In this document: positions 539 through 62,922 of the stretch, in pieces
Layout of the letters: each line of letters begins with the position of its first letter
Numbering within the stretch: the first letter of the stretch is position 1
DNA from: Candidatus Liptonbacteria bacterium
GTDB lineage: Bacteria > Patescibacteriota > Minisyncoccia > UBA6257 > 2-01-FULL-56-20
Reading direction: 5' to 3'
Assembly (NCBI GenBank): GCA_016182105.1
Contig: JACOXZ010000011.1
Location: 1,218-65,217 of the forward strand
DNA length: 64,000 bases
Notes under the pieces: model-generated
What the model saw: only the letters and a program-made list of their open reading frames with translations
What the model was told of the DNA's origin: nothing
The model's database searches: none
Translations under genes and position numbers: made by a program

Positions 539-786
539 GGTGTGAGGTATTCTTACTCCGCGCACCTTGAGCGTAACACCGGATTTGGCCGCGTCAAACC
601 CCGTCACCTTAAAACATAAATCTTCTTCCTCAAAAATATGATTTGCGAATGAATAACATTTTCTTGAGAAAGACGGCTGGCGCTCACATCTTTCTAAGGT
701 GCGGGGTCAACGCGTCCCAGTCATCCTAGATACCTACTTACCGATAGGTATGTTGCGTTGACTAATGCTGCCGGGCTTGGTATCCT

Positions 787-1083
787 TCACTTTCGTTTCG
801 GACTACCTTTTCGACCAGACAGAAAATCCTTCTCTAAAGCTACGGCAACTAACCGTTTATATGCAAATGCCTTACCAGAACCTGACTTAAGATATCGCTC
901 GAAGTCGCGTGCCTCTTTCTCCGTGGTAAATGCACTATACCAAATTAATTTCCAGGGCAGATGAGGTTTTGTGGATGGCACACTGCCCTCGCTGTGAAGC
1001 TTGAATCTAGCCCGAAGATCATTAGTGGATCCGAAATAAAATATGTGCGACTTCGAGCTGAGCAAAATGTATGTATAGTGCAT
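787..1083 (-). CDS. GIY-YIG nuclease superfamily small protein (UPF0213-like)
   Basis: 98 aa. N-terminal YTYILLS..IFYFGSTNDLRARFKLH matches the GIY-YIG motif. Confidence 0.7.
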   Translation of the reverse strand: MHYTYILLSSKSHIFYFGSTNDLRARFKLHSEGSVPSTKPHLPWKLIWYSAFTTEKEARDFERYLKSGSGKAFAYKRLVAVALEKDFLSGRKGSPKRK

Positions 1084-1112
1084 GCTATTCCGTAGCTTTA
1101 GCGAAGGATAGC

Positions 1113-1181
1113 TGCCGGGCTTGGATTCGAACCAAGGTGACGTGATTCAGAGTCACGTATCCTACCACTAGATGACCCGGC
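1113..1181 (-). tRNA. tRNA-Gln (anticodon CUG)
   Basis: Reverse complement folds as GCCGGGT acceptor, 3-bp D stem ATC/GAT, anticodon stem CGTGA/TCACG with loop CUCUGAA, and T arm CTTGG-TTCGAAT-CCAAG. CCA is not encoded. Confidence 0.65.
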
Positions 1182-1215
1182 AAAGTCTTAGCGGTTCTTA
1201 TGTTATAATAATTCC

Positions 1216-5321: not shown

Positions 5322-5924
5322 ATGAATATCAAAAAACTAGCTGGGTTTACCTTTATCGAAGTCGTGATCGTGATCGCGATTTTCGTGGTGATTTTCACTG
5401 TGATTGCGAGCTTTGGCGAGAATACCAGTTTGCTTTCGAACCTAATAAACAAAAGCTTGCAAGCGGAACAAGACCTAAGGCAGACTTTCCAGGTTATAGT
5501 AACTGAAATCCGTTCAGCAGGGCCCTCAAGTCTTGGCGCCTATCCGATTGAGTCGGCCGCTACTTCGTCTTTCGCTTTTTTCAGCGACATTGACGAGGAC
5601 GGCGTTTTTGAGCGGGTAAGATACTTCGTGGGGACTAGCACGCTCGAGAAAGGAGTGATTGAGCCTATTGGGAACCCATTGGTTTACGCGACCTCGAGCG
5701 AGTCTGTAAAAATAGCAGTTAATTACCTGCTTATGGCCTCGAGTACTTTTGAGTATTATGACGCTAATTACACCGGGCTAGAGGCGTCGCTTAGCACGCC
5801 TATAGACGTAACCAAGATCAGGATCGTTAAAGTCACGGTTACGGCTGACGTTAACCCAGGAGCGGCCCCGAAGCCAGTGACCTTCACCAACATCATTAAC
5901 GTGAGAAATCTTCGAAGCAACTGA
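5322..5924 (+). CDS. pseudopilin / minor pilin (prepilin-type N-terminus)
   Basis: The sequence ...GFTFIEVVIVIAIFVVIF sits near the N-terminus. Confidence 0.6.
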   Translation: MNIKKLAGFTFIEVVIVIAIFVVIFTVIASFGENTSLLSNLINKSLQAEQDLRQTFQVIVTEIRSAGPSSLGAYPIESAATSSFAFFSDIDEDGVFERVRYFVGTSTLEKGVIEPIGNPLVYATSSESVKIAVNYLLMASSTFEYYDANYTGLEASLSTPIDVTKIRIVKVTVTADVNPGAAPKPVTFTNIINVRNLRSN

Positions 5925-6025
5925 TCCCGTTAGAAGCCGCGATCGCGTTGCTAAAACTCCAAATATCTATCAATGTACAGTCATTACAATGAACTCGCCT
6001 AGATCGCGATCTGCTTCTAACGGGA
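5925..6025. repeat. family-1 miniature TIR element, copy E1 (about 101 bp; TIR tcccgttagaagccgcgatcgcg / cgcgatctgcttctaacggga)
   Basis: 22-nt terminal inverted repeats read directly. The internal sequence is homologous to E2, E3 and E4. The element ends at the ATG of the downstream gene. Confidence 0.8.
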
Positions 6026-7497
6026 TGAAGAACAAAAAAGGACAACTTTCGCTTCAGGTTTTGATCTTCGGAGCGGTCTCGATAATCGTTATCAGCGGCT
6101 TTGCGCTTTGGGCTTCATCGTTTTTGAAATTCTCTCTTAGGGATTTCAATAAGACATTAGCTTTCTCAATTTCGGAGGCTGGCATTGAGTATTACCGCTG
6201 GCACCTGGCGCACGCGCCACAGGACTTTCAGGACGGCACTGGCGGCCCCGGCCCTTATGTCCACAACTATTACGACAAAAACGGAATTGTCCTCGGCCAG
6301 TTCAGTTTGGAAATCACCCCGCCAGCCACGGGCTCAACGATCGTAAAAATCAAGAGCACTGGCCAGCTTGCGGCCGACTCGAGTATTCAGAAAATAATTC
6401 AGGTTTCGATGGGCATCCCGTCTTTTGCCAAATACGCGGTCGCGGCCAATGACATCATTCGTTTTGGAGACGGCACAATAGTTTACGGACCGATTCATTC
6501 AAACGGCGGCATCCGGTTCGACGGCTACGCTTATAATTTGATAACCAGCGCCGTAGCCGACTATGACGACCCGGATCACGGCGGCGGCAATGAATTCGGA
6601 GTCCATACTCATCGCAATGAAGGAGGCCAAAGCGGAGTGGATAACAGCTACCGACCCAAAGAAGCGCCGCCGCCGCCAGCTCCCGACCGGCCGGATGTTT
6701 TCGGCGCTGGCCGTGAGTTTCCGGTGCCGGCCGTTGATTTCGTTGGCATTACCCAAGATTTGAGCCAAATCAAAGCCGATGCTCAAACAAACGGTTTTTA
6801 TAGGGCGAGCTCAACGGCTTACGGCTATGAAGTGATTCTTAAAACCGATGACACATTTGACCTTTACCGGGTCAATTCTTTAGTGTCTTCGCCTTCTTCA
6901 AATTGCACTAAATCGCAAGATCAAGCCAATAATCAAGGCGGCTGGGGAACCTGGACTATTAATTCCAAAACCTTATTGGGTAATTATGTTTTTCCGGCCA
7001 ATGGTTTGATATTTTTGGAAGACGATGTTTGGGTGAGAGGACAGGTGGACGGCGGCCGTTTGACCATCGCTTCAGCTCGGTTTCCGGATAATCCCTCAAC
7101 AAGAAGCAGCATTACTTTAAACGACAATCTTTTATATACCGATTACAACGGTCTTGATGCCATCGCTTTAATGGCGCAGAAAAATATCAATGTCGGCTGG
7201 CAGAGCCAAGATATCATCAGAATTGATGGGGCTTTGGTCGCCCAAAACGGCTGGGTGGGAAGATATTATTACAATAGTTTCTGTTCGCCGTACGATTTAA
7301 GAGACACCATTACCACTTACGGGTCGCTCGTCTCAAGCCAGCGCTACGGTTTTGCTTACACTACCGGTGTTCAAACTGTTTCCGGCTATCCGACGAGAAA
7401 CCTAATTTACGATTCCAATTTATTATACGGCCCGCCGCCGAGTTTCCCCTTGACCAGCGATCAGTATACACAAATATCCTGGGACGAAGTAAAATAG
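6025..7497 (+). CDS. pilus-associated protein with pilin-like hydrophobic N-terminus (PilX or minor-pilin-like)
   Basis: Starting at ATG 6025 the protein reads MKNKKGQLSLQVLIFGAVSIIVISGF. The ORF-track start at 5989 lies inside the repeat. Confidence 0.5.
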   Translation: MKNKKGQLSLQVLIFGAVSIIVISGFALWASSFLKFSLRDFNKTLAFSISEAGIEYYRWHLAHAPQDFQDGTGGPGPYVHNYYDKNGIVLGQFSLEITPPATGSTIVKIKSTGQLAADSSIQKIIQVSMGIPSFAKYAVAANDIIRFGDGTIVYGPIHSNGGIRFDGYAYNLITSAVADYDDPDHGGGNEFGVHTHRNEGGQSGVDNSYRPKEAPPPPAPDRPDVFGAGREFPVPAVDFVGITQDLSQIKADAQTNGFYRASSTAYGYEVILKTDDTFDLYRVNSLVSSPSSNCTKSQDQANNQGGWGTWTINSKTLLGNYVFPANGLIFLEDDVWVRGQVDGGRLTIASARFPDNPSTRSSITLNDNLLYTDYNGLDAIALMAQKNINVGWQSQDIIRIDGALVAQNGWVGRYYYNSFCSPYDLRDTITTYGSLVSSQRYGFAYTTGVQTVSGYPTRNLIYDSNLLYGPPPSFPLTSDQYTQISWDEVK

Positions 7498-9076: not shown

Positions 9077-9128
9077 TATAAGGAATTTATCCTTCCGTGG
9101 CCAGCGGCTATATCAAATTTTCGACCTA

Positions 9129-9158
9129 TTGACAAAATAGCTAGTTATAGTATATAAT
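9129..9158 (+). promoter_or_regulatory. sigma70-like promoter (TTGACA, 18-nt spacer, TATAAT) driving cassette A
   Basis: TTGACA at 9129-9134 and TATAAT at 9153-9158. Confidence 0.55.
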
Positions 9159-9317
9159 TAATCTGTTCTTTGATAATTCATATTCTAGTTTTTCAATCGC
9201 ATGAGGCGAGCGTTTAGCGAGTTAGATGAATAGCTCTTTAAGCACTCGCCTTATCACGAGGCGCGTCTCTCTCCGGAGGGAGTCCGGTAAGTTCACAACG
9301 AAAAGGAGAACGACGAT

Positions 9318-10191
9318 GACGACACAGTCGATCACGTCCGTCACAGACGGTCAGAAAAAGCAGTACCTGCGGTTCGTCGAGGACGCCGCCGACAAGGCGC
9401 TCGTGGAGGCCGTTCTCGACAAGGACGGTCTCCAGCGAGTCATCGAGAACGGGGACGACCTGCAGGCGGCCATCGTGGCCAAGCTCAAGGAGCTCTCGGT
9501 CACGAACGAGTACGCTGACGAGGAGGTCGGATCGAACTACGGTTACCTCTCGGGTTATAAGCCCAAGGGTATCGCCGAGCAGATCAAGACCCTCCGCAAG
9601 CTGTTCCCGTCGATCGGTACCGCTGACGAGCAGATCGCCAGCAAGCCGCTTCCCGCCAGTGCCGAGGGATGGTTCGCCATTCCGAGGTACGAGCTGGTCG
9701 CGGCGAGCTACAACGACGCGGTTCTCGCGGTGCTCGAGCTGACCAAGAAGGATCGCAATGGCAAGTTCTACAACTGGTGCGAGGGCCACCTCGGCCCGCA
9801 GTACCTGCACCAGACGGAGCGAGCCGTGCGTTCTCTGAAGAAGATCGGCGAAGAGCAGAAGGGTCACGACATCTTGGTCGTTGCGGCGCAGTTTGGTCTC
9901 CGTCACCGGGGCCGTTCCGTCCGTCGGGCTCGCTCCACTATGAACTCCTCGGAGTTCGGACTCGGCGCGTTCGCGGTCGGGGTCATACTGCTGACCCATC
10001 CCGAGCGTCTGAAGCACTACGATGACCTCTGGATCGACTGCGCAGGAGATGAGTACTCTCCTGACGCCGATGGCCGGTTCGACGAGGCCCCGCTCTTCGA
10101 CTTCGACGACGGCGAGGTGGAGTTCTTCACCCACTGGGTGGGCAATGCCCGCGAGTTCTATGGCTCTGCGTCGGGCTTTCTCCCGCAGTAG
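9318..10191 (+). CDS. GC-rich orphan acidic protein (291 aa), no recognisable family
   Basis: SD aaGGAGaacgacg precedes the ATG. Local GC is about 62% against about 46% in flanking sequence. A hairpin terminator follows. The antisense ORF 9238-10278 is judged to be a GC artefact. Confidence 0.55.
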
Positions 10192-10263
10192 TCGCTCCTC
10201 GAAACCTCGAACGCTTGGGTCTTTCGATCGTTTATCGCTTGATCCCTTGCGTTCGCTACAACT

Positions 10264-10312
10264 GGGGGTTATCCACACGGCACACGTGGATAACCCCTTT
10301 TTCTTTTTTTAA
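10264..10312 (+). terminator. rho-independent terminator
   Basis: Hairpin gggggttatccacacg-gcac-acgtggataacccc followed by a T-run. Confidence 0.75.
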
Positions 10313-10348
10313 TTTTTGATTTTAAGAATTTTCATATACAGCAAATAC

Positions 10349-10462
10349 AATTTCCGCGCGGCTATGAGTCCGAGCGGGCATGGTCTCCGACCGCGATCGG
10401 AGGAGCGCAGGACTCATCGCCAGCGAAGCCGCACGCTGGGCGGCTGAGCGGTAGCGGAAATT
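10349..10462. repeat. GC-rich long hairpin element, copy A (closing inverted repeat aatttccgc/gcggaaatt)
   Basis: Nested inverted repeats. Both ends are homologous to the element at 11882-12150. Confidence 0.6.
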
Positions 10463-10514
10463 ATATTTGCTATATTTAAGCAGATTTCGCATAATTTTAA
10501 ATATCTTTTATGAA

Positions 10515-10629
10515 TCCCGTTAGAAGCCGCGATCGCGTTGCAAATAAATTAAATATCAACCAAATGCGTAATCGTTACAATAAAATAAACCTGCAGACTT
10601 GCGCAAATCGCGATCTGCTTCTAACGGGA
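10515..10629. repeat. family-1 miniature TIR element, copy E2
   Basis: Same 22-nt TIRs as E1. The element ends at ATG 10629. Confidence 0.8.
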
Positions 10630-11870
10630 TGAAATTTCTTTTGATTTTAGGGTCGATTTTAGTGGCGGGCGCGGGCCTCTTTTTTATATTCGGAACTTCC
10701 AAAAATTTAATCATCGAACCCAAGGAAAATCCGCAAGGTGATCTTAACCTGACGCTTCTCCGTGTTCCGGAGCCGCCGCTTCCGACCTCAACCCCGCCTT
10801 CACCGCCCACGGCCGTCGATATCACAAACCAGCCGCCGCTTCAAGACCCGCCCCGGGTAGTCAAGGGAATATATGCAACGAGCTGGTCAGCTGGGTCAGA
10901 AAATAAAATTAAATATTTACTTGACCTTATAGATAAAACCGAACTTAACGCTATCGTCATTGATATAAAAGATTATTCCGGCTACGTGGCCTACAGAACC
11001 GGCATTCCCGAAGTTAGAGCCGCAGGCGCCGAAGACCAGATTCGCATCGCAAAACCAAACGCCCTGCTCAAACGTCTTCACGACAAAAATATCTATGTGA
11101 TCGGCAGGATCTCGGTTTTCCAGGACCCGATCTTAGCCAAAGCCCATCCCGAGTGGGCACTCGTTTCTTCAAGCACTGGCAAGCTCTGGGAAGATCGGAA
11201 AGGGCTCCTCTGGATGGATCCGGCCGCAGAACCAGTCTGGGATTATAATTTGAAGATTGCTAGAGACGCCTTGACGCGGGGTTTTGACGAGATTAACTTC
11301 GACTATATTCGTTTTGCTTCTGACGGCGACCTTAAAAATATTAAATATCCGGTTTGGGACGAGAAATCTTTAAAAAGCACAGTGATTAAGAACTTCTTTT
11401 CCTATTTGCGGAAAAATCTTCCCCAAGCCAAGATCTCCGCTGATCTTTTTGGTCTTGCGACCGTGAATCAAGAGGGCTTAGGCATCGGTCAGATTATAGA
11501 AGATGCTTACGAGTATTTTGATTATGTTTCGCCTATGGTTTATCCTTCACATTATGCTCCGGGATTCAATAACTACAAAAATCCCGCCGAGCACCCTTAT
11601 GAAGTGATTCGTTATTCACTTGATGAGGCTCTTAGACGTTTAGAAAACTATTCAAGCTCCACAAATCTTGAGGTTGGTTTAAAATCCAAACTGCGGCCGT
11701 GGCTCCAGGATTTTAACCTCGGCGCGACTTATGGCCCGGAAATGGTGAGGCGTGAGATTCAAGCCGTGGAAGATTCTTTGAATAGCGCCTCGAGTTCCAA
11801 CGCTTTCGCCGGCTGGCTTCTTTGGGATCCAGCGAATGTCTATACGGCAGCGGCCCTTCAAAACCAATGA
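10629..11870 (+). CDS. exported TIM-barrel glycoside-hydrolase-like protein (GHL/DUF4015-type)
   Basis: Signal/TM MKFLLILGSILVAGAGLFFIF, and a GHL-like core VKGIYATSW...NAIVIDIKD...WMDPA...FDEINFDYIRF. The ORF-track start at 10599 lies inside the repeat. Confidence 0.55.
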   Translation: MKFLLILGSILVAGAGLFFIFGTSKNLIIEPKENPQGDLNLTLLRVPEPPLPTSTPPSPPTAVDITNQPPLQDPPRVVKGIYATSWSAGSENKIKYLLDLIDKTELNAIVIDIKDYSGYVAYRTGIPEVRAAGAEDQIRIAKPNALLKRLHDKNIYVIGRISVFQDPILAKAHPEWALVSSSTGKLWEDRKGLLWMDPAAEPVWDYNLKIARDALTRGFDEINFDYIRFASDGDLKNIKYPVWDEKSLKSTVIKNFFSYLRKNLPQAKISADLFGLATVNQEGLGIGQIIEDAYEYFDYVSPMVYPSHYAPGFNNYKNPAEHPYEVIRYSLDEALRRLENYSSSTNLEVGLKSKLRPWLQDFNLGATYGPEMVRREIQAVEDSLNSASSSNAFAGWLLWDPANVYTAAALQNQ

Positions 11871-19054: not shown

Positions 19055-20933
19055 AGCCAAAAATTTTACCGATTTCGAGGAGTCGTTAAATGGCGGCTCA
19101 CGCGAGGAAGTCATAGAGGTGCCCTTGAGCAGCCAGCCGCTTTTTTATACGGGCTTATTAATTTTTCTTTTTGCCGCGCTTGCCGTAGGCCGCGTTCTTT
19201 TCTTGGGTGTAGTCTCCGGCGAAATCTATAAAGCCAGGGCCGAGGCCAATTCTAGCGAGCTCGAGCGGCTTCAAGCGCCGAGGGGTCTCGTCTTCGCGAG
19301 AGGCGGAGAAGTTTTGGCAGAAAACCAGCCGGTTTTCCTGGCCGTCTTGAAGACCAGCGAATTTCTAAAAGACGAGTCTATCCAAGAAAAAACGCTTGCT
19401 TCAATCAAGGAGATTATGGGAATTGATAGAGAACTAGTCTGGAGTCTGATCAAAGAACGAGACCAAGAAAGAATAGGCGACCCAATTGTTCTTAGCGCCG
19501 ACCTAAGCCAAACTGAGCTAATTCAGCTTAAAAGCCTCAATTCCTTGTCCCTGGTCGTAGAGAGCGGTTTCAAGAGGAATTATCCGGACGGCCCAATTTT
19601 TTCTTCCATAATTGGCTATACCGGACTCCCTACCGCCCTAGATCTTAGAGAGAATGCCGAACTTACCGGCGTGGATTTTGTTGGCAAATCCGGCCTAGAG
19701 GCTTTTTACGATAAAGATCTCCGCGGAAAAAACGGATTTTTAGCGTATCTCCGCGATGCCAAAGGTGAAATCTTCGAAGAAAAAAAGGAGAGGCCAGTCG
19801 AGGCAGGAGCGGCTCTCAATTTAACAATTGACGCTGAATTTCAGCGCTATTTTTACCACAGGATGCAAGAGGGACTCACCTCATTAGGGAGAAACTCCGG
19901 CGTTGGTCTGGCGTTAAATCCGAGAAACGGCGAGGTTTTGGCCCTGATTAATTTACCGAGCTACGACCCCAATATTTTCTTGGCTCCAGAGAAAAACGAA
20001 GAGAGGTTGAAACTCTTGAATTCACCGGAGACGCCCCTGTTCAATCGGGCTATAAGCGGCACCTACAGCCCAGGTTCCACAATTAAGCCGCTCGTGGCTC
20101 TCGCGGCTTTGAGCGAAGGCGTGATCAACACCGAAAAACAAATTTATTCCCCAGGCTATCTTGAAATTCCGAATCCTTATGACCCCCAGAAACCCACTCT
20201 TTTCCTCGATTGGCGGCCCCAGGGCTGGGTGAATTTAGAGCGGGCCATTGCTCAGTCCTCGAACGTTTATTTCTACACTGTAGGCGGTGGCTTCGGCGAT
20301 ATTAAGGGGCTGGGGATCAAACGTTTAAACGACTGGTGGCAAAAATTTAATTTAGGAAAGCTCACTGGCATTGATTTACCTTGGGAGGCCAAGGGACTTT
20401 TGCCCACAGTCGAGGAAAAAGAAAAAAGAACCGGCACGCCCTGGCTTTTGGGCGATACTTATAACGTCTCAATTGGCCAGGGAGATCTCTTGCTTACTCC
20501 TCTTCAGATTTTAAACTACGTTGCCGCAATTGGAAACGGCGGGAAAATCTACCGGCCGTTTCTTGTCTCGAATTTCAAACACTCCGAAGTTGCTAGCGAC
20601 CTTTCTAATCTTCAAACTCAAATTTCTGAAGTGGAGAAAGGCATGAAGGCCGCAGTGAATTTTCCCTTAGGCACCGCCTACCTCCTTCACGATCTTCAGG
20701 TCTCGGTCGCTGCAAAAACCGGAACAGCCCAGATTTTGTCGAACACCCAGGCCAACGCCTTCTTTGTCGGTTTTATGCCGGCCGAGGATCCTGAAATTGT
20801 TATCCTGATTTTAGTTGAACGTTCGCGCGAAGGCAGTTTAAACACCGTGCCTATCGCTAAAGACGTGCTTAACTGGTACTACTTAAACCGGATCCCTCAC
20901 CCTTCAGAGATTTTATCTACGTCATCAAAATGA
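19002..20933 (+). CDS. mrdA: penicillin-binding protein 2 (transpeptidase)
   Basis: STIKP (SxxK), SSN and KTGTA motifs. The last 11 codons and the stop codon lie inside family-2 repeat F2-1. Confidence 0.8.
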   Translation: MLSQLFLSLKPSMPRKYKAKNFTDFEESLNGGSREEVIEVPLSSQPLFYTGLLIFLFAALAVGRVLFLGVVSGEIYKARAEANSSELERLQAPRGLVFARGGEVLAENQPVFLAVLKTSEFLKDESIQEKTLASIKEIMGIDRELVWSLIKERDQERIGDPIVLSADLSQTELIQLKSLNSLSLVVESGFKRNYPDGPIFSSIIGYTGLPTALDLRENAELTGVDFVGKSGLEAFYDKDLRGKNGFLAYLRDAKGEIFEEKKERPVEAGAALNLTIDAEFQRYFYHRMQEGLTSLGRNSGVGLALNPRNGEVLALINLPSYDPNIFLAPEKNEERLKLLNSPETPLFNRAISGTYSPGSTIKPLVALAALSEGVINTEKQIYSPGYLEIPNPYDPQKPTLFLDWRPQGWVNLERAIAQSSNVYFYTVGGGFGDIKGLGIKRLNDWWQKFNLGKLTGIDLPWEAKGLLPTVEEKEKRTGTPWLLGDTYNVSIGQGDLLLTPLQILNYVAAIGNGGKIYRPFLVSNFKHSEVASDLSNLQTQISEVEKGMKAAVNFPLGTAYLLHDLQVSVAAKTGTAQILSNTQANAFFVGFMPAEDPEIVILILVERSREGSLNTVPIAKDVLNWYYLNRIPHPSEILSTSSK

Positions 20934-21023
20934 GTACTACAGACAAGACGTTTCCTTTCAAAGTCGCTCGGCAAAAGAGATCACACCATGAAAAATCGTG
21001 CATGATCTCTGAATGGTGAGGGA
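20893..21023. repeat. family-2 miniature TIR element, copy F2-1 (about 131 bp; TIR ccctcacccttcagagat / atctctgaa.ggtgaggg)
   Basis: Homologous to the copies at 34724 and 62973. It ends at an ATG. Confidence 0.8.
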
Positions 21024-21364
21024 TGATTCAAAAATTTATTCGATTTAAAATCACAAGCGCTGCTTTCTTCGCGAGTTTGACACTGGTTTTAAGTGGATGG
21101 CTTTGGGCCTATTTTTCGTTAAGAAATCTCCCGCCACCCTATATTCTTAGGTTTGTGAGCAATCTTGGTGTGACCCAATTAGGCGATCTTCAAGACATTG
21201 CCGCCGCCGGAGCCGTGGCCATGATAAGCGTGCTTTTGAATTTTATACTGGCTTTTGAGCTTGAGACCAAAGCAAAGTTTTTAGCGAAACTCCTGACTTT
21301 TTCAACCCTGACTTTTGCCGCCTTGATTTTCATCGGCTTCGCCGCTATTATTAGCGTCAACTAG
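21023..21364 (+). CDS. hypothetical small membrane protein
   Basis: 113 aa with three hydrophobic segments. The start is supplied by the end of F2-1. Confidence 0.35.
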   Translation: MIQKFIRFKITSAAFFASLTLVLSGWLWAYFSLRNLPPPYILRFVSNLGVTQLGDLQDIAAAGAVAMISVLLNFILAFELETKAKFLAKLLTFSTLTFAALIFIGFAAIISVN

Positions 21365-34723: not shown

Positions 34724-34855
34724 CCCCCCCACTCTTCAGAGATTTTCTCTACGTCATCAAAATGAGTACTATAGACAAAATGTTTCATTTCAAGGCCGTT
34801 CGGCAGATGAGATTATGCTACGAAAAATCGTGCATGATCTCTGAAGAGTGAGGGA
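34724..34855. repeat. family-2 miniature TIR element, copy F2-2
   Basis: It begins immediately after the TGA of the upstream response regulator and ends at the ATG of the next one. Confidence 0.8.
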
Positions 34856-35262
34856 TGAGGCCGAAACCTTTAATTTTATTAGTTGACGATGAGGCTGATT
34901 TTCGAGAGATTATCAGCGCGAAGCTCACCGCAGCGGGTTTTGACGTTGCTCTAGCTAAAAATCAGTCCGAAGCCGTCGCTAAAGCCGAGCAACTCTTGCC
35001 TGACCTGATTTTAATGGATATCTATTTGCCGCCCGGGCCAACCGGGACTGATACGGCCTTGAACATCAGGCAAAATCCCAAAACCAAAGATTTAAAAATC
35101 GCATTCCTCACCAATCTTAAAGAACCCTGGCCTGCAATCGGCGGGGATAGAGAAAAAGTTACCCAAGAGCTTGGCATGGAAGGGTTTATAGAAAAGACAG
35201 AAGATTTGAATATGCTCGTCAAAAAAATCCAGGAAATTTTAGAGAAGGCTCCCTCGTCTTGA
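34855..35262 (+). CDS. single-domain response regulator (paralogue of 34331-34723)
   Basis: MRPKPLILLVDDEADF receiver domain. Confidence 0.7.
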   Translation: MRPKPLILLVDDEADFREIISAKLTAAGFDVALAKNQSEAVAKAEQLLPDLILMDIYLPPGPTGTDTALNIRQNPKTKDLKIAFLTNLKEPWPAIGGDREKVTQELGMEGFIEKTEDLNMLVKKIQEILEKAPSS

Positions 35263-35325
35263 CCCCGCACCTTAGAAAGATTTCGTTTTCTAGAACGCCT
35301 GTGGATAAATCCTTATTTTTATTAC

Positions 35326-35410
35326 ACAAAATCTGATTTGCGAATGACCTACCCTTATTATCAAGAAAAACGGCTAGGCGTTCACATCTTTCTAAGGTGA
35401 CGGGGTTGAT
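35326..35410 (+). promoter_or_regulatory. conserved ~80-nt intergenic element upstream of rpsP (copy b of the atctttctaaggtgNcgggg motif)
   Basis: It aligns position-for-position with 636-710. The core recurs at 53342-53365. Confidence 0.4.
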
Positions 35411-35440: not shown

Positions 35441-35767
35441 ATGCTTAGGATGAGGCTTCAGAGGATAGGCAAGAAGCACCAGCCGAGTTTCCGGCTCACG
35501 GTTTCCGAAGCTCGCTCAAAAATGGCTGGGCCGCCGGTTGAGAATTTGGGTTCATATAATTCTTTTACCAAAGTGGCGAATTTTAAAAAAGAGAGGATTG
35601 AATATTGGTTAGGTGTCGGCGCGAAACCTGGAGCGACAGTTCATAATCTTTTGGTAAAGGAGGGGATCTTGAAGGCGAAAAAGCTAGCAGTCAAGATCGG
35701 AAAAGCCAAGGATAAAGGCAAAGCCGAGCCGCAGATAGCCCCGGTTGCTCCGGCAGCCGCGGGTTGA
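35441..35767 (+). CDS. rpsP: 30S ribosomal protein S16
   Basis: MLRMRLQRIGKKHQPSFRLTVSEARS. Preceded by TTGATT-16-TATAAT and a 7-nt leader. Confidence 0.8.
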   Translation: MLRMRLQRIGKKHQPSFRLTVSEARSKMAGPPVENLGSYNSFTKVANFKKERIEYWLGVGAKPGATVHNLLVKEGILKAKKLAVKIGKAKDKGKAEPQIAPVAPAAAG

Positions 35768-35793
35768 CCCCATTAGATAAATATCTAACGGGG

Positions 35794-35824
35794 TTGACAC
35801 ATTTCTATTTCCGTCTTATATATA
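35794..35824 (+). promoter_or_regulatory. sigma70-like promoter (TTGACA-17-TATATA)
   Basis: Perfect -35 at 35794-35799. Preceded by the hairpin ccccattagataaatatctaacgggg. Confidence 0.55.
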
Positions 35825-40328: not shown

Positions 40329-40370
40329 AACCAACCCTGCCGCCAAAAACTGAGCAAAATTTCTACTATG

Positions 40371-40403
40371 ATTATACCGCAATTGCGGTATAATCGTAGT
40401 AAG
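40371..40403. promoter_or_regulatory. perfect 24-bp palindrome ATTATACCGCAATTGCGGTATAAT plus CGTAGTAAG (copy 1, upstream of rpsB)
   Basis: Read directly. A near-identical copy is at 62923-62955. Confidence 0.5.
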
Positions 40404-49457: not shown

Positions 49458-50465
49458 ATGTTTACTCGGAAAATCGGCATTGATTTGGGCACGGCGAATA
49501 CGATTGTTTTTGTTCCGGGAAAGGGATTCATTATTAACGAGCCGACGATTGTGGCAATGAATAAACCCGAGAACTCTATCCTCGCTGTAGGCGTTGAGGC
49601 CAAAGAGATGATAGGCCGAACTTCCGAGAACATCTTGGCCTACCGTCCCTTAAAAGACGGCGTGATTGCCGATTACTATATCACGAAGGCCATGCTCACT
49701 TATTTCATCTCCAAAGCCGTGAGCTGGTTTAATTTGTTTAAGCCGGAGGTGGTGATCTCGGTGCCGGCCGGCATAACCCAGACCGAGCGCCGTGCCGTCG
49801 TGAATGCCGCTCGGGAGGCAGGGGCGAGGCGGGCCTATGTTGTCCGCGAGCCGGTACTCGCGGCCCTAGGCGCAGGCATCCCCATTAATGCCCGCTCTGG
49901 CAATATGGTGGTGAATATCGGAGGCGGCACATCCGAGGTGGCTGTGATTGCTTTGGGAAGCATTGTTTCATGGACAAGTTTGAGGGTCGCTGGCAACCGC
50001 TTTGATCAGGCCATTCGTGATTATGTGAAGAAAAAGTACGCCCTCGCGATCGGCGAGCAGACTGCCGAGGCGGTGAAGATTGAGATAGGATCGGCAATGC
50101 CCACCAAAGAAAAGATGGAATACGAAATTCGCGGCCGAGACTTGGTTTCGGGTCTGCCTAAGGATGTGGCCTTGACCTCGAATGAAATTGCCGAAGCCCT
50201 GAACCCATACCTCATAGAAATCGCCGGTTCAGTGCAGAATGTTTTTAACGTGACCCCGCCAGAGCTTGTGGCCGATATTATGGAGAAAGGGATGGTTTTA
50301 TCCGGAGGCAGCGCCCAACTCCACTCACTTCCAGAATTTTTTGAGCGGACCTTAGGTGTTCAGGCTTACGTGGCCGAAGATCCTCTTTTTTGCGTGGCCA
50401 AAGGCACGGGTCTCATCTTGAGCCACCTCGACACTTACAAAAGGACGCTTTCGAATAAACAGTAA
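49458..50465 (+). CDS. MreB-like actin homologue (second copy)
   Basis: IGIDLGTANT, NIGGGTSE. Confidence 0.75.
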   Translation: MFTRKIGIDLGTANTIVFVPGKGFIINEPTIVAMNKPENSILAVGVEAKEMIGRTSENILAYRPLKDGVIADYYITKAMLTYFISKAVSWFNLFKPEVVISVPAGITQTERRAVVNAAREAGARRAYVVREPVLAALGAGIPINARSGNMVVNIGGGTSEVAVIALGSIVSWTSLRVAGNRFDQAIRDYVKKKYALAIGEQTAEAVKIEIGSAMPTKEKMEYEIRGRDLVSGLPKDVALTSNEIAEALNPYLIEIAGSVQNVFNVTPPELVADIMEKGMVLSGGSAQLHSLPEFFERTLGVQAYVAEDPLFCVAKGTGLILSHLDTYKRTLSNKQ

Positions 50466-51382
50466 TGTTGATAGGCCACGAGCGGATCATTAAGGACTTA
50501 GAATATCTAGCGAAGAGTCGCGACTTCAGTCACGCCTATCTATTTTTCGGAACAGAGCAAGTAGGTAAAAGGAGAGTGGCTTTAGGATTAGCAAATTATT
50601 TTGAAAAAGGAATTTTTGACCCGCCAGCCTCGACTAGCTCGAGTCTAGGCGGGCCAGGCGAGCCGCCCTCCGCTGGGGGCGAGCCTCGCCTCCATGGAGG
50701 CGGGAGACCCCTGAACGACACCCGGCAAATTGAGCCGAGCCCGGAGAAAACAATCGGCATTAATGTCGTCCGGGAGCTAAAGAATTACTTGTCCCAAAAA
50801 CCGAATGTGAGTCCATACCGTCTGGTGATTATAAATGATGCTGAATTTTTGACCCCAGAGGCCCAAAACGCTCTTCTCCGCTTAACTGAAGAGCCGCCGC
50901 CTTCTTCTCTTTTAATCTTAGTTTTACGGGATCCGGAGTCGCTCACGCCTACGCTTACCTCGCGTTTTCAAAAAATTTATTTTGGGACGGTTCAAACCTC
51001 GATCGTGAAAGTCTGGTTAGAGAAAGAGTTAAAGATTTCAGTTAAAAAAGCCGAAGAAGTTGCTAAGATTTCCCGCGGGAAGCCCGGGCTCGCTTACAGC
51101 ATGCTTAAGGATAAAAACTTTGAGGCGCTCACGCGAACGGCGGAAAAATTCTCTAAAGTCCCCAAAAGAGATCGCCGCCTTTTTTTAAAAAAACTTCTCG
51201 AATCCAAAAACTTTAATTTCCCTGCCTTTTTAGATGCTTTAGTCATAAATCTGGAGCCAAAAAAAGTGGATAATTTTCACCTCTGGCACAAAATTTTAGA
51301 ACTCAAGAGGAAAATGACCTATTTCAATTTGAATCCGCGTCTCCAGCTTGAGAATCTTTTGGAGGCTTTTGTATCCCGTTAG
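50465..51382 (+). CDS. holB: DNA polymerase III delta' subunit-like (with a GC-rich low-complexity insertion)
   Basis: AAA+-like N-terminus HAYLFFGTEQVGK and RLTEEPP. Confidence 0.6.
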   Translation: MLIGHERIIKDLEYLAKSRDFSHAYLFFGTEQVGKRRVALGLANYFEKGIFDPPASTSSSLGGPGEPPSAGGEPRLHGGGRPLNDTRQIEPSPEKTIGINVVRELKNYLSQKPNVSPYRLVIINDAEFLTPEAQNALLRLTEEPPPSSLLILVLRDPESLTPTLTSRFQKIYFGTVQTSIVKVWLEKELKISVKKAEEVAKISRGKPGLAYSMLKDKNFEALTRTAEKFSKVPKRDRRLFLKKLLESKNFNFPAFLDALVINLEPKKVDNFHLWHKILELKRKMTYFNLNPRLQLENLLEAFVSR

Positions 51383-51412
51383 ATAACTATCTCACGGGAT
51401 AAACAAAACCTT

Positions 51413-53211: not shown

Positions 53212-53225
53212 GCAACTGAGCGTTG

Positions 53226-53341
53226 TCCCGTTAGAAGCCGCGATCGCTTTGGGTAATGCATAGTTGTTTGCCGTATGGATAGTCATTGTTATACATCGCT
53301 ATAGTCCACATATCACTGATCGCGATCTGTTTCTAACGGGA
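53226..53341. repeat. family-1 miniature TIR element, copy E3
   Basis: Same TIRs as E1 and E2. Flanked by cgttg on both sides. Confidence 0.8.
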
Positions 53342-53383
53342 CGTTGCTATCTTTCTAAGGTGCGGGGTAAAATAGAGATATAA

Positions 53384-56952: not shown

Positions 56953-58497
56953 ATGAAACTACCGACTACTCACTACTCACTACTCACTCGTCGTGGCTTC
57001 AGTCCGGTTGAGGTGATTTTAGCGGGTTCTATCCTGGCTTTGATCGTGACAGCCATTGTGGGCGCCTTGGTTTACGGAAGAGAGGGGACTCAAGTTTCCG
57101 GGAGTAGGGCGAGGGCGATCTTTTTGGCCGATGAGGGGCTTGAGGCTCTTCGCAATATGCGCGATGAAAGCTTTACTAATCTAACCGACGGTCCGCATGG
57201 TCTTGTAACCTCTGGTAGTCAGTGGGTCTTTTCGGGAGTAGAGGACGTGACCGATATTTTTACGAGGCAAATTCAAATCGGGACGATTGATTCAACGACC
57301 AAACAAATCACTTCAACTGTAACCTGGCAGCAGAATCCCCAGCGCCAGGGATCTGTATCTTTGGGGACACGATTGACAAACTGGAAGATTATAGCCGGTT
57401 TTCAGGCTGATAGTCTTTCTGTGAATACTTCAGCTGCCGATGTGGATTCTACAGACAATACGCATGTCATCGGCGTCACTATCGATAACCTTGGTGTCAC
57501 CGATATCACCATCACCCACATGACAGTTTCTTGGAGCGGTGTCTCCGGCGCGACAAGGCTGAACGGCATCACGATCAACGGCACCCAGGTTTTCTCCGGT
57601 AATTCTAACTCAGGCACACTTCTTGATATTGCTGATTTTACTTTGACTGCGGGGGCGGGGAGTTATCCCATCAATTTTTTTGATTTCAATAGGAATATGA
57701 CCAATAGTACCTTGACAGTTGTCTTTACCATGGCTGATGGTTCAACCAAGGAAGTGACCTTTAGTCCGGGTGCCGTGCCGCCGGACACCACCCCGCCGGC
57801 AGCGATTACCAATCTCGCCGTCTCGAATGTGACCTCCAATTCCACCGACCTTTCTTGGACCGCTCCGGGAGACGATGATAACACCGGCACCGCTACCTCC
57901 TACGACGTTCGCTATTCTACCGCTCCGATTACTGATGCCACCTGGTCATCAGCCACCCAGGTGACCGGAGAACCCGCCCCCGCTCCCGCAGGGACAGCTC
58001 AATCCATGACCGTCACAAGCCTATCGCCGTCTACGACTTATTACTTTGCTATTCGAACCGCCGATGAAGTACCAAATATCTCAAGTCTCTCGAATATACC
58101 GAGCGTCACAACGTTAACACCTGCTCAAGCCGATAGTCTTTTGGTGGATACTTCGGCTGTCAATATTAATCCAAGTGATAATACCCAGGTGATCGGTATA
58201 ACCCTTGAGAATACTGGAACCTCGAATATCACCATTACCCAAATGACAGTTTCCTGGAGCGGTGTATCAGGCGGGACAAGATTGAACGGCATCACGATCG
58301 GCGGCACCCAGGTTTTCTCTGGTAATTCTAACTCCGGTACGCTTCTTGATATTACCGATTTCACTTTGACTGCGGGTGCTGGAATTTATCAACTCAATAA
58401 TCTCGACTTCAACCGGAGAATCACCGGAATAACTTTAAGTATTACCTTCACTATGGCTGACGGGTCCACCAAGACGGTAAGCGGCATCACCCCGTAA
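56953..58497 (+). CDS. large pilin-like protein with two tandem duplicated domains flanking an FN3-like module
   Basis: N-terminus RRGFSPVEVILAG. Two nearly identical ~125-aa repeats (57402-57780 and 58125-58497). Confidence 0.55.
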   Translation: MKLPTTHYSLLTRRGFSPVEVILAGSILALIVTAIVGALVYGREGTQVSGSRARAIFLADEGLEALRNMRDESFTNLTDGPHGLVTSGSQWVFSGVEDVTDIFTRQIQIGTIDSTTKQITSTVTWQQNPQRQGSVSLGTRLTNWKIIAGFQADSLSVNTSAADVDSTDNTHVIGVTIDNLGVTDITITHMTVSWSGVSGATRLNGITINGTQVFSGNSNSGTLLDIADFTLTAGAGSYPINFFDFNRNMTNSTLTVVFTMADGSTKEVTFSPGAVPPDTTPPAAITNLAVSNVTSNSTDLSWTAPGDDDNTGTATSYDVRYSTAPITDATWSSATQVTGEPAPAPAGTAQSMTVTSLSPSTTYYFAIRTADEVPNISSLSNIPSVTTLTPAQADSLLVDTSAVNINPSDNTQVIGITLENTGTSNITITQMTVSWSGVSGGTRLNGITIGGTQVFSGNSNSGTLLDITDFTLTAGAGIYQLNNLDFNRRITGITLSITFTMADGSTKTVSGITP

Positions 58498-59018: not shown

Positions 59019-59087
59019 CTTTTAGCTGATAGCTTTTAGAAGTAAAATAACTAAAAGCTAAAAGCTGTAACCTAAAAGCTAGTAATT

Positions 59088-59456: not shown

Positions 59457-59502
59457 CGGCCTAAAAGCTAAAAGCTATAAGCTAAAAGCTAAGGGTGGTT
59501 AC

Positions 59503-59874: not shown

Positions 59875-59949
59875 TCCACAGAGAAAAATCAGTGAGTTAT
59901 GATATAATTTTTATAAGCCAGACCCCCACACTAATCAGGACTTTGAGTT

Positions 59950-60087
59950 ATGTTCTATGTGTATGTGTTGCGTAGCATGAAAGACAAGAAATTATATAAT
60001 ATAGGTTATACGAATAATCTTAACCGCAGGTTGATAGAACATATTAGTGTGGGGGAAAGGTCGCGAGAATTTCAGATTCTAAAATGA
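59950..60087 (+). pseudogene. truncated GIY-YIG nuclease remnant (45 aa)
   Basis: MFYVYVLRS...KLYNIGYTNNLNRRLIEH is the N-terminal half only. Confidence 0.5.
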
Positions 60088-60563: not shown

Positions 60564-60680
60564 TCCCGTTAGAAGCAGATCGCGATCTGGGTAAGTCTGC
60601 AGTTCAATTTTATTCACTGTAATGACTATACACTGATAGATGTTGGATTTTTAGCAACGCGATCGCGGCTTCTAACGGGA
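60564..60680. repeat. family-1 miniature TIR element, copy E4 (inverted relative to E1, E2 and E3)
   Basis: The reverse complement of the internal sequence aligns with E1 and E2. It ends at the ATG of the histidine kinase. Confidence 0.8.
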
Positions 60681-62907: not shown

Positions 62908-62922
62908 AAAGAGTTACTATTA

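Follow-up and report, generated by a model that had tools for sequence, protein, structure and literature searches.

MIRUs are a mycobacterial repeat class, not known outside that group, which consists of units of 40-100 bp, often in tandem arrays, and is not known to have terminal inverted repeats or an associated nuclease gene. They contain an ORF whose stop codon is coupled to the start codon of the host gene, an arrangement proposed to have minimal impact on expression (Supply et al. 1997, as relayed in PMC12548453). These repeats share several features with the element family described here, of which four copies (copies 1-4) lie in the window, i.e. the whole 64-kb stretch of DNA that was analysed, which belongs to a Candidatus Liptonbacteria contig: both are small and dispersed, apparently insert at start codons and have an ORF co-oriented with the host gene. 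The MIRU coupling distance of -4 nt (ATGA) matches that of copy 2 and of 73 of the 109 full-length elements listed, and a MIRU-type ORF stop at the host start is present in copy 2 and absent in copies 1, 3 and 4. Unlike MIRUs, the present family has inverted ends of 12-23 nt, target duplications, relatives that encode a nuclease and a host among the Patescibacteria, and its short copies mostly have a +4 spacing (TAA-CGGG-ATG) instead of the -4 overlap. No tandem arrays of units were found, apart from a few adjacent insertions.

Bacterial MITEs, such as the Correia elements of Neisseria, the enterobacterial ERIC/IRU and the RPE of Rickettsia, resemble the present copies in their length of about 100-150 bp, inverted ends, duplication, high copy number and capacity to form hairpins. 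They are also co-transcribed with neighbouring genes, as would be the case here, and the RPEs, too, can be translated through. A TA is duplicated by Correia elements, which contain promoter and IHF sites, and RPEs insert in frame within genes. All three are generally regarded as derivatives of IS elements with a transposase, and we know of no report that any of them rebuilds start codons by its terminal base or derives from a nuclease-only cassette. The sequence of the present family is unrelated to theirs. The window copies have several of the features by which MITEs are recognised, namely a size below about 500 bp with inverted ends, flanking duplications (copies 1-3) and multiple dispersed copies; the longer relatives that share their ends encode a GIY-YIG nuclease, which is not a known transposase.

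With regard to the longer members of the family, free-standing GIY-YIG homing genes and the UPF0213/YhbQ/SLX1 branch have the same PF01541 catalytic domain and are likewise small, selfish-looking and horizontally mobile. Unlike the homing genes, the full-length elements have no DNA-binding domain, possess inverted ends and duplications, precede many unrelated genes and often have an ORF without start and stop codons of its own; the window copies have no gene. Integron attC sites resemble the family in being imperfect palindromes (57-141 bp) in which the outer boxes are conserved, the centre varies and the bulge is asymmetric, and the outer box of the family, GTTAGAA/TTCTAAC, is reminiscent of the GTTRRRY/RYYYAAC of attC. 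An identification with attC was rejected, as the box order is reversed (the 5' arm bears GTT... in the family and ...AAC in attC). Furthermore, unlike attC, the family shows no cassette arrays and no integrase, and its insertions are gene-less and at start codons.

Four copies in the window and empty sites in relatives

A first-pass annotation had described four copies of an inverted-repeat element with homologous interiors, one of them inverted, and TIRs of 22 nt. All four were recovered at the positions given there (Table 1). An nhmmer profile search returned exactly four matches, copies 1-3 on the forward strand and copy 4 on the reverse strand, and the copies align along their entire length, not merely in the TIRs, with a mean column identity of 77% and invariant ends. 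The inverted ends form an imperfect repeat of 21-23 nt whose outer 12-13 nt are identical across copies, except for a single substitution in the right arm of copy 3 that leaves a G:T wobble in the outer stem; the 12-mer CCCGTTAGAAGC has seven exact occurrences, which together with this single-mismatch arm account for all eight arms. The copies are predicted to fold with -38 to -53 kcal/mol each (z = -3.9 to -5.9), in stems that include the A of the AUG. No Pfam domains were found in the four copies, and only two tRNAs reached the threshold in an Rfam scan of the window; the best sub-threshold match was that of copy 2 to WsnRNA46, with 21 bits against a cut-off of 65.3. The PilB protein encoded in the window has no exact match on record. 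The targeted genes are unrelated to each other, the copies being dispersed single insertions before core genes. The density in the window is four full and two mini copies within 64 kb, and several loci per MAG are found elsewhere. HIP1 (GCGATCGC), considered as a cyanobacterial signature, is irrelevant here, with just 5 sites in the window, 4 of which lie within elements.

Table 1. Family members and GIY-YIG genes in the window, with their flanking duplications.
Feature	Position	Strand	Duplication (left / right)	Context
Copy 1, putative non-autonomous element T+CCCG..CGGG+A, 101 bp	5925..6025	+	TGA, 5922-5924 / 6026-6028	Sense to host gene 6025-7497
Copy 2, 115-bp element	10515..10629	+	TGAA, 10511-10514 / 10630-10633	Sense to DUF4015 glycosyl hydrolase gene 10629-11870
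Copy 3, 116-bp element, divergent interior	53226..53341	+	CGTTG, 53221-53225 / 53342-53346	Upstream of response-regulator ATG 53384
Copy 4, 117-bp element	60564..60680	-	None	Antisense to histidine-kinase gene 60680-62203
Mini member with 24-nt hairpin, C + CCCATTAGATAAATATCTAACGGG + G	35768..35793	.	TTGA, 35764-35767 / 35794-35797	
Mini member, T + CCCGTTAGATAACTATCTCACGGG + A	51374..51399	.	Not clear	
Intact GIY-YIG nuclease gene, 98 aa	787..1083	-		PF01541, 57.9 bits; adjoins tRNA 1112-1182
Truncated GIY-YIG ORF, 45 aa	59950..60087	+		TGA overlaps ATG 60084 of pseudopilin gene 60084-60557

Comparison with relatives bears out the insertion of the element. Relatives of the contig are present in the Hainich groundwater metagenomes. 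Copy 2 is missing from three orthologous sites, where the empty sites read ...tatcttttATGAAattt..., i.e. ATGAAattt, and it is therefore an insertion that duplicated (A)TGAA; a pseudo-start ATG remains on its left (10510-10512), and the host ATG is the NCBI-annotated start of P0001. At the site of copy 1, the orthologous junction of a relative without the element (L121) is aacTGAaATGAgaaac, from which the window sequence can be derived with an additional 5-nt deletion. The left TGA of copy 1 is the stop of the pseudopilin gene 5322-5924, the host ATG takes its A from the end of the element (6025), and the N-terminus of the host protein is conserved starting at residue 1. The site of copy 4 holds only a 21-nt TCCC..GGGA remnant in one relative (L124), and in another (L123) the element is absent and a TTG start stands where the window has the terminal A of the element followed by TG. 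The four copies are real mobile DNA elements, tiny, MITE-like and polymorphic for presence or absence, and the empty sites demonstrate insertion.

Other details of the first description stand in part. The final A of the element, thought to be the A of the downstream ATG in every copy, is so in copies 1, 2 and 4 (in the latter at 60680); copy 3 is inserted at a -35-like TTGCTA, 43 nt 5' of the ATG, with no abutting start codon. The flank duplications, read as tgaa and cgttg, are TGA, TGAA and CGTTG for copies 1, 2 and 3, respectively, confirmed in the case of copy 2 by the empty sites, and are absent for copy 4. A preceding stop codon, placed within about 10 nt of three of the four copies, abuts copy 1 and lies 6 nt from copy 4, the distance being 14 nt at copy 3, and there is none near copy 2. 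Nor do the copies lack coding capacity, as had been stated: copy 2 contains a 22-codon ORF (10564-10632, MRNRYNKINLQTCANRDLLLTG*), the TGA of which overlaps the host ATG at 10629 (ATGA) and which amounts to 40 codons when read from the left pseudo-start at 10510. Copies 1 and 3 have short ORFs of 9 codons (5973-6002, MYSHYNELA*, and 53275-53304, respectively), and copy 4 has no intact internal ORF.

The two shorter hairpins with the same ends that had also been noticed are mini members of 24 nt (35769-35792 and 51375-51398). In the first, the left TTGA holds the TGA stop of ORF 35441-35767 and the right TTGA rebuilds a -35 TTGACA, followed after 17 nt by TATATA. In the second, the left arm provides the TAG stop (51380-51382) of ORF 50465-51382.

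Start codons, orientation and a short ORF across the family

The 12-nt ends are common to at least 118 genome loci, mostly of Patescibacteria, with a few loci labelled as other phyla. Elements were sampled by exact-match end patterns, and the resulting counts are lower bounds, skewed towards intact copies. The general anatomy is (T or C)+CCCGTTAGA...TCTAACGGG+(A or G), with a terminal base pair that is T..A in 129 and C..G in 28 of the 162 elements listed; G..C also occurs. Conservation across the phylum extends to the outer 12 nt and not to the interiors, and the ends carry stop codons in two frames. A duplication of 3-5 bp flanks 121 of the 162 elements; 93 of these duplications span 4 bp, 17 span 3 bp and 11 span 5 bp. 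It mostly takes the form T-N-N-A, overwhelmingly TGAA or TGGA, with T first in 111 and A last in 110 of the 121 elements with a duplication listed.

An ATG adjoins 120 of the 162 elements listed, which agrees with the preferential siting at stop/start junctions suggested earlier. The insertion point lies directly 3' of the first base of the start codon, and the last base of the element together with the duplicated TG makes up the rebuilt ATG or GTG. The left copy of the duplication retains the prior upstream feature, be it a former start codon, an overlapping stop codon or a -35 box; a left pseudo-start is kept in 95 of the 120 ATG-abutting elements, and 87 of these 95 match the gene start over 4-6 nt. 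Three elements read ATGAA-C...G-TGAA, so that the terminal G of the element creates a GTG start. That the duplication is a constant palindrome of 6 bp (ATGAAT or GTTGAC) around an element consisting of CCCG..CGGG is contradicted by these cases and by right copies reading ATGAAA. That carried-over overhangs template the choice of target, with piggyBac-like inheritance of the duplicated sequence, is unlikely, as near-identical copies from the same MAG (L021 and L025) have TGAA and TGCG. The enrichment at start codons could partly reflect survivorship in very compact genomes instead of targeting.

The orientation of the element follows that of the host gene by 84:2 among the elements listed, with the gene on the right of sense elements in 43 cases versus on the left in 1, and on the left of antisense elements in 41 versus on the right in 1; copy 4 of the window is one exception. 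Furthermore, 42 of the 84 main-family elements listed contain an ATG-initiated ORF of at least 15 codons that ends at the TAA in the right end (TAA-CGGG-ATG). This ORF is typically 19-28 codons long, its TAA falling 4 nt before the host ATG, and its count exceeds those in shuffled interiors (5.1±2.2, maximum 13 in 1000), on the antisense strand (5) and in the other two frames (3 each). Among the start-codon-abutting main-family elements listed, 45 of 79 have an ORF of at least 12 codons to the same TAA and 4 have an overlapping TGA. When the elements are clustered at 80% identity, 37 of the 78 clusters have the short ORF. Its codon-position entropy is flat (1.29/1.44/1.47), so that selection on the peptide is not detectable and conservation at that level was rejected; what is conserved is an open frame alone. 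A conserved upstream ORF beginning at the left pseudo-start and spanning the element was also discarded as a general feature, as just 21 of 95 stay open throughout and none of the frames is enriched. A long internal ORF is missing from half of the short copies, including copies 1, 3 and 4 of the window, and is therefore not required for persistence.

Supply of the start codon by the terminal base, the 84:2 orientation, the short ORF, the nuclease-coding relatives and the phylum-wide span are features absent from the first-pass annotation.

Relatives that encode a GIY-YIG nuclease

Relatives of about 275 bp with the same ends were found at 120 or more metagenome loci, and their sole content is a GIY-YIG nuclease ORF of 86-95 aa, of UPF0213/SLX1-like type. 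The frame is open over at least 80 codons in 109 of the 116 nuclease-coding copies listed, and the ORF fills the element end to end. The Pfam match is to PF01541 (61 bits against a cut-off of 22.6; E = 1e-16 for L039 and L053) and covers the catalytic domain only; one example of 94 aa reads MNPVRDDEYYYVYVLRS...KRFLSLTG. The closest solved structures are the UPF0213 proteins BH0048 and EF2693, and there are weak matches to the structure-specific nuclease SLX1 and to group I intron endonucleases (TIGR01453, 18 bits, under the cut-off). The codon-position entropy of 0.76/0.61/1.39 indicates purifying selection. In the 73 elements with ATGA coupling mentioned above, the nuclease ORF stops at the duplicated TGA, which overlaps the restored ATG of the host; 26 of the 109 ORFs listed have no internal start codon, and the nuclease would often be read from the original ATG of the host. 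Among the same 109 copies, a duplication is present in 66 (TGAA in 42), a sense-side start codon abuts in 78 and only a reverse start in 8.

The short and the nuclease-coding copies occur together: of the 120 nuclease-coding loci listed, 30 have contigs that also carry short copies of the identical end subtype, 44 in all. Both kinds of element resemble each other, in like orientation, over their final 20-25 nt only, and no homology between their interiors was detected beyond this segment. The full-length elements found have the end subtype GAGAC and the window copies GAAGC, with no full-length element of the GAAGC type among those found. Inside the 64-kb window there is no full-length nuclease-coding element with family ends. 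The intact GIY-YIG gene of the window (Table 1) shares 47% identity with the nuclease that the full-length elements encode, lacks the family ends and is a possible candidate for a nuclease acting in trans. The truncated GIY-YIG ORF has the stop/start architecture of the family and also lacks its ends; the segment 59921-60056 in this region is missing in the relatives L123 and L124.

Genes for a DDE enzyme, an HUH enzyme or a recombinase were not found between family ends in the element-containing loci analysed. A literature search on the end sequence, on MITEs of CPR and on GIY-YIG genes with inverted repeats or duplications returned no description, and we could not find the arrangement of a start-codon element with nuclease-only relatives described.

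Origin of the short copies

The four copies are probably non-autonomous derivatives of a start-codon-parasitising GIY-YIG cassette, tolerable via translational coupling as proposed for MIRUs, a reading to which we assign a probability of roughly 0.7. The full-length element would consist of the nuclease ORF between the ends, co-oriented with the host gene and inserted after the first base of its start codon, and the short copies would have lost the nuclease and retained the ends and the orientation. As the geometry of stops and starts suggests, ribosomes crossing the element would melt its strong hairpin and would be passed on to the host start codon by termination-reinitiation. This coupling would leave the insertion nearly harmless and allow the element to borrow the promoter and the translation start of the host, and the proposed hand-over of ribosomes would account for the strict co-orientation. 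The GIY-YIG nuclease, in trans in the case of the short copies, would cut DNA to move the element.

A further step, which we advance only tentatively, is that a GIY-YIG nuclease of about 90 residues without a DNA-binding domain may be the sole mobility enzyme, representing a new enzymatic class of DNA transposon. The known enzyme classes of DNA transposons are DDE, HUH, tyrosine/serine recombinase and Cas1, and we know of no GIY-YIG enzyme that acts as a DNA transposase. In such a nuclease transposon, the enzyme would recognise the hairpin or cruciform of the ends, like the structure-specific SLX1, the target start codon would serve as element start, element stop and rebuilt host start, and the four copies of the window would be miniatures mobilised in trans.

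DDE transposases classically leave a short duplication beside elements with inverted ends, and the 3-5 bp T-N-N-A duplication is typical of DDE elements. The copies could accordingly be ordinary MITEs moved in trans by a DDE transposase (e.g. IS1380/piggyBac-like or IS5-like) encoded elsewhere, with the GIY-YIG gene as a passenger or secondary capture and the start-codon positions as survivorship, for which a rough estimate of ATGRA sites suggests that it alone could yield a sizeable share at starts. CCC...GGG termini and a TTAA duplication are hallmarks of piggyBac, which has IS1380 as its bacterial outgroup (PMC10813416). The present family shares the CCC...GGG termini, a 4-bp T-N-N-A duplication (TTAA in one element) and seamless-looking empty sites. 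The resemblance of the ends, CCCTAGAAAG in the family and CCCGTTAGAAG in piggyBac, may be chance. Unlike in piggyBac/IS1380, no DDE transposase was found here, the duplication is usually TGAA or TGGA, neither of them palindromic, and the terminal base pair varies (T..A, C..G, G..C), which is unusual for DDE ends. Moreover, in about 1.6 Mb of element-containing loci no pair of family ends was separated by over 300 bp and none enclosed an ORF of transposase size, the nuclease ORF fills 109 of the 116 copies listed under purifying selection, unlike usual cargo, and the 84:2 orientation bias is not generated by a symmetric transposase on a near-palindromic target. We regard this origin as unlikely.

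Homing leaves no target duplication and does not need inverted ends. A free-standing homing-endonuclease gene that cuts element-free alleles and spreads by recombination-dependent homing, with the scattered sites and short copies as rare illegitimate events, is at odds with the duplications of 121 of 162 short and 66 of 109 long copies listed, with insertions before many unrelated genes and with a 94-aa protein devoid of the domain for DNA binding to which homing enzymes owe their long recognition sites; there were no hits in 2.9 million viral contigs either. GIY-YIG is a classical homing-endonuclease fold, to which the weak TIGR01453 match adds, a few loci are labelled as other phyla, and GIY-YIG genes are reported to be frequently transferred out of Patescibacteria (PMC12455944), and even so we consider homing very improbable. 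Least probable of all is a host regulatory hairpin controlling translation initiation or termination of the neighbouring genes, a functional role of the TIR hairpin that had been raised initially and that the very stable predicted stems including the A of the AUG, the phylum-wide outer 12 nt and the scarcity of Shine-Dalgarno cores (4 of 57 starts in this genome, so that local structure could matter) might favour, as orthologous genes of close relatives do without the element, the target genes are unrelated, the interiors are unconserved, copy 3 and the mini members sit at -35 boxes and gene ends, no Rfam family matches, and the two strands fold equally (sense -39.0, antisense -39.8 kcal/mol) with equal G:U counts, which rejects selection on the hairpin at the RNA level.

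Patescibacteria (CPR) are ultra-small bacteria with tiny, gene-dense genomes, usually described as poor in mobile elements. If the derivation of the short copies from a start-codon GIY-YIG cassette is true, these bacteria host an abundant element with ends suited to gene-dense genomes, which bring stops in two frames and a base that completes a start codon. It would be a second, independent and far more widespread case of the MIRU principle, in which coupling of an ORF to the host start makes an insertion harmless, and it would point to a possible nuclease-only transposon. With regard to annotation, many start codons of CPR would be element-derived, with pseudo-starts about 120 nt upstream, short ORFs and 90-aa nucleases would be embedded in presumed 5' UTRs, and more than 2,000 protein clusters labelled 'GIY-YIG nuclease family protein' may be element genes. 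The insertions would also be handy as strain-level markers.

Inverted-repeat elements and the start codons they rebuild

The four inverted-repeat elements of the window (copies 1-4) align from end to end with a mean column identity of 77% and invariant ends, and a profile derived from relatives matches exactly these four, which bears out the repeat family and the coordinates proposed by the first-pass annotation. Seven exact occurrences of the 12-mer CCCGTTAGAAGC in the window and one arm with a single mismatch make up the eight arms of these copies, whose predicted hairpins range from -38 to -53 kcal/mol (z = -3.9 to -5.9); no Rfam family matches the elements. The neighbouring genes encode an unknown 490-aa protein, a DUF4015 glycosyl hydrolase, a response regulator and a histidine kinase, and since these are unrelated the copies represent a dispersed repeat, not a duplicated leader. 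The annotation's claim that every copy ends at a start codon holds for copies 1, 2 and 4, but not for copy 3, while the two shorter hairpins that it reported with the same ends do belong to the family.

Inverted-repeat elements and GIY-YIG reading frames of the window
Feature	Position	Strand	Remarks
Copy 1	5925-6025	+	Matched by relatives-derived profile; ends ...CGGGA-TG at host ATG
Copy 2	10515-10629	+	Matched by relatives-derived profile; ends ...CGGGA-TG at host ATG
Copy 3	53226-53341	+	Matched by relatives-derived profile; 43 nt upstream of ATG, at -35-like TTGCTA
Copy 4	60564-60680	-	Matched by relatives-derived profile; ends ...CGGGA-TG at host ATG
Mini member	35768		24-nt hairpin
Mini member	51374		24-nt hairpin
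Intact stand-alone GIY-YIG gene	787-1083	-	Without family ends; directly downstream of tRNA 1112-1182 (-)
Truncated GIY-YIG ORF	59950-60087		TGA overlaps next gene's ATG

At the site of copy 2, three DUF4015 orthologues (88, 86 and 73% identity) lack the element and read ...taaatatcttttATGAAattt..., against ...tatcttttATGAA-TCCCG...CGGG-ATGAAattt in the window, so that copy 2 is an insertion which duplicated (A)TGAA. The DUF4015 protein is 100% identical to that of a Candidatus Liptonbacteria MAG, with its start annotated at the ATG that abuts copy 2. For copy 1, the protein of the host gene, whose start codon abuts the element, is conserved from residue 1, and the syntenic junction in a relative (L121) is aacTGAaATGAgaaac, from which the window state can be derived only with one more small deletion. 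For copy 4, one relative (L123, kinase 92% identical) lacks the element and has TTG as the start codon (agtaagcTTGAAACTG), and another (L124, 86%) holds a 21-nt TCCC...GGGA remnant exactly at the window's site; the A of the window's kinase ATG is therefore element-derived.

Anatomy was counted in 162 elements among the matches listed. The bases flanking CCCG and CGGG are complementary in 159 of them (T..A 129, C..G 28, G..C 2) and, with these bases taken as termini, the duplications measure 4 bp in 93, 3 bp in 17 and 5 bp in 11, with none in 41. Their first base is T in 111 of 121 and their last A in 110 of 121, TGAA/TTCA and TGGA/TCCA being the commonest. An ATG abuts 120 of the 162 elements; 95 of these 120 keep a left pseudo-start, 5-7 nt from CCCG, which in 87 of the 95 matches the first 4-6 nt of the gene exactly. 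In three loci (L049, L051 and L058) with the arrangement ATGAA-C...G-TGAA, the old ATG is retained at the left and the right-hand start is a GTG formed by the terminal G, which fixes the element boundary and shows that the first base of the start codon comes from the element. The family is mobile, with defined ends and duplications, and its terminal base rebuilds start codons. Upstream functions are kept by the left duplicate, as seen for the TGA stop codon at copy 1 and for the mini copy at 35768, where the left duplicate contains a stop codon and the overlapping -35 box is rebuilt by the right one; the mini copy at 51374 supplies the TAG stop of the upstream ORF. Tandem elements with one common duplicate (..TCTAACGGG-ATGAAT-CCCGTTAG..; L027 ~6620, L103 ~3420, L046 1157-1391 and L128 720-1062) also occur, the rebuilt target apparently being re-used by further insertions.

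The family is phylum-wide in Patescibacteria. The exact-end pattern used for sampling was found at at least 118 loci in species-representative genomes, nearly all patescibacterial among the matches listed (Saccharibacteria, Paceibacteria, Nomura-, Kaiser-, Levy-, Jorgensen-, Taylor- and Zambryskibacteria, Microgenomates and others); nine of those listed bear labels of other phyla, MAG taxonomy labels being the depositors' own. Elements at the listed loci measure between 24 and about 130 nt, apart from two of 275 nt, and the family ends had no matches in 2.9 million viral contigs.

Other repeats and motifs of the window

The motif ATCTTTCTAAGGTG(C/A)CGGGG is conserved at 679-710 (+), 35259-35281 (-), 35377-35404 (+) and 53340-53371 (+), between a -35-like hexamer (TTCACA or TTGCTA) and a -10-like TAAAAT or TCAA, in one case preceding a response-regulator gene, and looks like a shared promoter or operator. 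A 39-nt near-palindrome, TACTATGATTATACCGCAATTGCGGTATAATCGTAGTAA, present at 40364-40402 and 62914-62952 (90% match), may be a divergent promoter or operator, since its TATAAT-like boxes point both ways. Heptamer repeats (CTAAAAG / CTACAAC / CTAAAAC)n at 59016-59081 and 59461-59491 are inverted around ORF 59088-59456, with similar repeats at 16848, 39611 and 41700. A 133-nt direct repeat is found three times (20894-21026, 34726-34858 and 62974-63106; 86% and 62% identity), and ORF 56953-58497 contains a 300-nt duplication (57402-57701 and 58125-58424; 77%). Between dnaX and the DUF4015 gene (9077-10514) lie about 1.4 kb with overlapping ORFs 9226-10191 (+) and 9238-10278 (-); in relatives this interval is only about 260 nt, GC-rich and structured-looking (L120 1211-1466, L121 3929-4187). 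The dnaX-adjacent sequence could be an SRP-RNA-like gene, with no Rfam match there in the window.

Nuclease-coding relatives

The two 275-nt members, on contigs that also hold short copies, are bounded by CCCGTTAGAGAC...GTCTCTAACGGG and encode a GIY-YIG protein of 92-94 aa (PF01541, E = 1e-16). At locus L039 the ATG of the left duplicate (aaaATGAA-TCCCG...) opens the ORF, whose end is ...CTA ACG GGA TGA, the TGA stop being the right duplicate, which overlaps the host ATG. In metagenomes, a scan for the same ends recovered at least 120 loci. Among the matches listed, an open frame of at least 80 codons fills 109 of 116 long elements; the overlapping TGA is the stop in 73 of the 109, the duplication is TGAA in 42, and the termini are T..A in 73 and C..G in 27. 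An internal start codon is absent from 26 of the 109, which need an in-frame ATG in the left flank, and a start codon abuts the ORF-sense side in 78, against a reverse start only in 8. In the same matches the codon-position entropy (0.76/0.61/1.39) points to a protein under purifying selection. Short copies of 24-144 nt are present on 30 of 120 listed nuclease-element loci, many with an identical GAGAC end subtype and the same CCTG+end on the gene-proximal side. Long and short forms are similar only in their last 20-25 nt, in the same orientation, and the nuclease-only long relatives have ends, duplications, position and orientation in common with the short copies. The matching protein clusters of 86-95 aa number at least 2,292, and their names go no further than 'GIY-YIG nuclease family protein' or 'putative endonuclease'; the nearest solved structures are UPF0213 proteins, the SLX1 match being weak.

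With regard to the window's own GIY-YIG frames, the tRNA and stand-alone gene arrangement recurs in a relative (L123 7611-7865, -), and the C-terminus of the stand-alone protein (..KDFLSGRK..) is similar to that of the mobile nuclease (..KRFLSLTG). The N-terminal half of the truncated ORF lies in a 136-nt segment (59921-60056) bounded by a perfect 13-nt inverted repeat, CCCCCACACTAAT / ATTAGTGTGGGGG (59923-59935 / 60043-60055), with a single occurrence in the window. This segment is precisely absent at orthologous sites (L123 ~3480, L124 ~2190), where only the downstream ...aaggtcg(c/a)gag... is kept; it may belong to a second family of inverted-repeat elements, or its absence may reflect a hairpin-mediated deletion.

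Architecture and co-occurrence suggest that the GIY-YIG nuclease may be the driver of mobility, perhaps with structure-specific cuts at the hairpin or cruciform base, and that the short, non-autonomous copies would be moved in trans. A conventional MITE driven by a DDE transposase seems unlikely: the CCC ends and T-N-N-A-type duplication recall piggyBac/IS1380 (PMC10813416), but about 1.6 Mb of element-containing loci yielded no transposase. Classical homing by the nuclease gene is harder still to credit, given the duplications, the diverse targets and a nuclease devoid of a DNA-binding domain. The searchable literature makes no mention of the end sequence, of CPR MITEs or of GIY-YIG genes between inverted repeats with duplications; one study does no more than list GIY-YIG genes with others transferred from Patescibacteria (PMC12455944). 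The family has been rated as combining known kinds, namely a MITE, a selfish nuclease gene and MIRU-like coupling, and a new enzymatic class of DNA transposon is a tentative possibility.

Orientation, short reading frame and proposed translational coupling

The main family has asymmetric ends (CCCGTTAGAAGC-CGCGRTCGC ... GAYCGCGAYCT-GCTTCTAACGGG) and is strictly co-oriented with its host genes. Among the matches listed, a gene of at least 60 codons lies on the right in 43 and on the left in 1, and for the reverse orientation on the left in 41 and on the right in 1, copy 4 being one of the two exceptions. Selection on an RNA hairpin as the cause of this bias was ruled out by equal sense and antisense folding (-39.0 vs -39.8 kcal/mol) and equal G:U counts. 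The first-pass suggestion of a hairpin acting in translation initiation or termination, i.e. a host regulatory hairpin, is very improbable in view of the element-free orthologous sites, folding that is equal on both strands, the lack of conservation in the interior and the members located away from start codons.

Element interiors are poorly conserved, with an A-rich sense strand. Among the matches listed, an ATG-ORF of 19-28 codons with an interior start is present in 42 of 84 main-family elements (37 of 78 clusters at 80% identity), compared with 5.1±2.2 in interior shuffles (maximum 13 in 1000), 5 on the antisense strand and 3 in each of the two other frames. This frame-specific ORF abuts the host start: its TAA stop lies within the right end (CTTC-TAA-CGGG-ATG), 4 nt ahead of the host ATG. 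Free divergence of the peptides and a flat codon-position entropy (1.29/1.44/1.47) indicate that the frame is kept open and the peptide is not. In a few elements the ORF frame ends at a TGA overlapping the host ATG; copy 2 is one of them, at odds with the earlier assertion of no coding capacity. Through-reading from the left pseudo-start across the whole element was rejected, as it is not conserved. The window copies are partly decayed, since three of the four are devoid of a long ORF and one is inverted.

The start of the short ORF sits in an A-rich loop and resembles native leaders such as taaatatcttttATG. Shine-Dalgarno cores (GGAG, GAGG or AGGA at -18..-4) precede 4 of 57 uncurated first-ATG starts of window ORFs of at least 150 aa, against 13% at random positions, and this Liptonbacteria genome thus seems to initiate translation largely without such pairing.

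Taken from sequence, the proposed mechanism is a translational coupling through the element, in which the stem would melt as ribosomes translate the nuclease ORF or the short ORF in its place, and the ribosomes would then be passed to the rebuilt start by termination-reinitiation. Such coupling would account for the orientation, the ORF geometry and the preference for TGA-containing duplications. The same logic, with insertion tolerated via translation hand-over, has been proposed for MIRUs (PMC12548453). For the present family, coupling would render insertions tolerable and provide the element with free expression.
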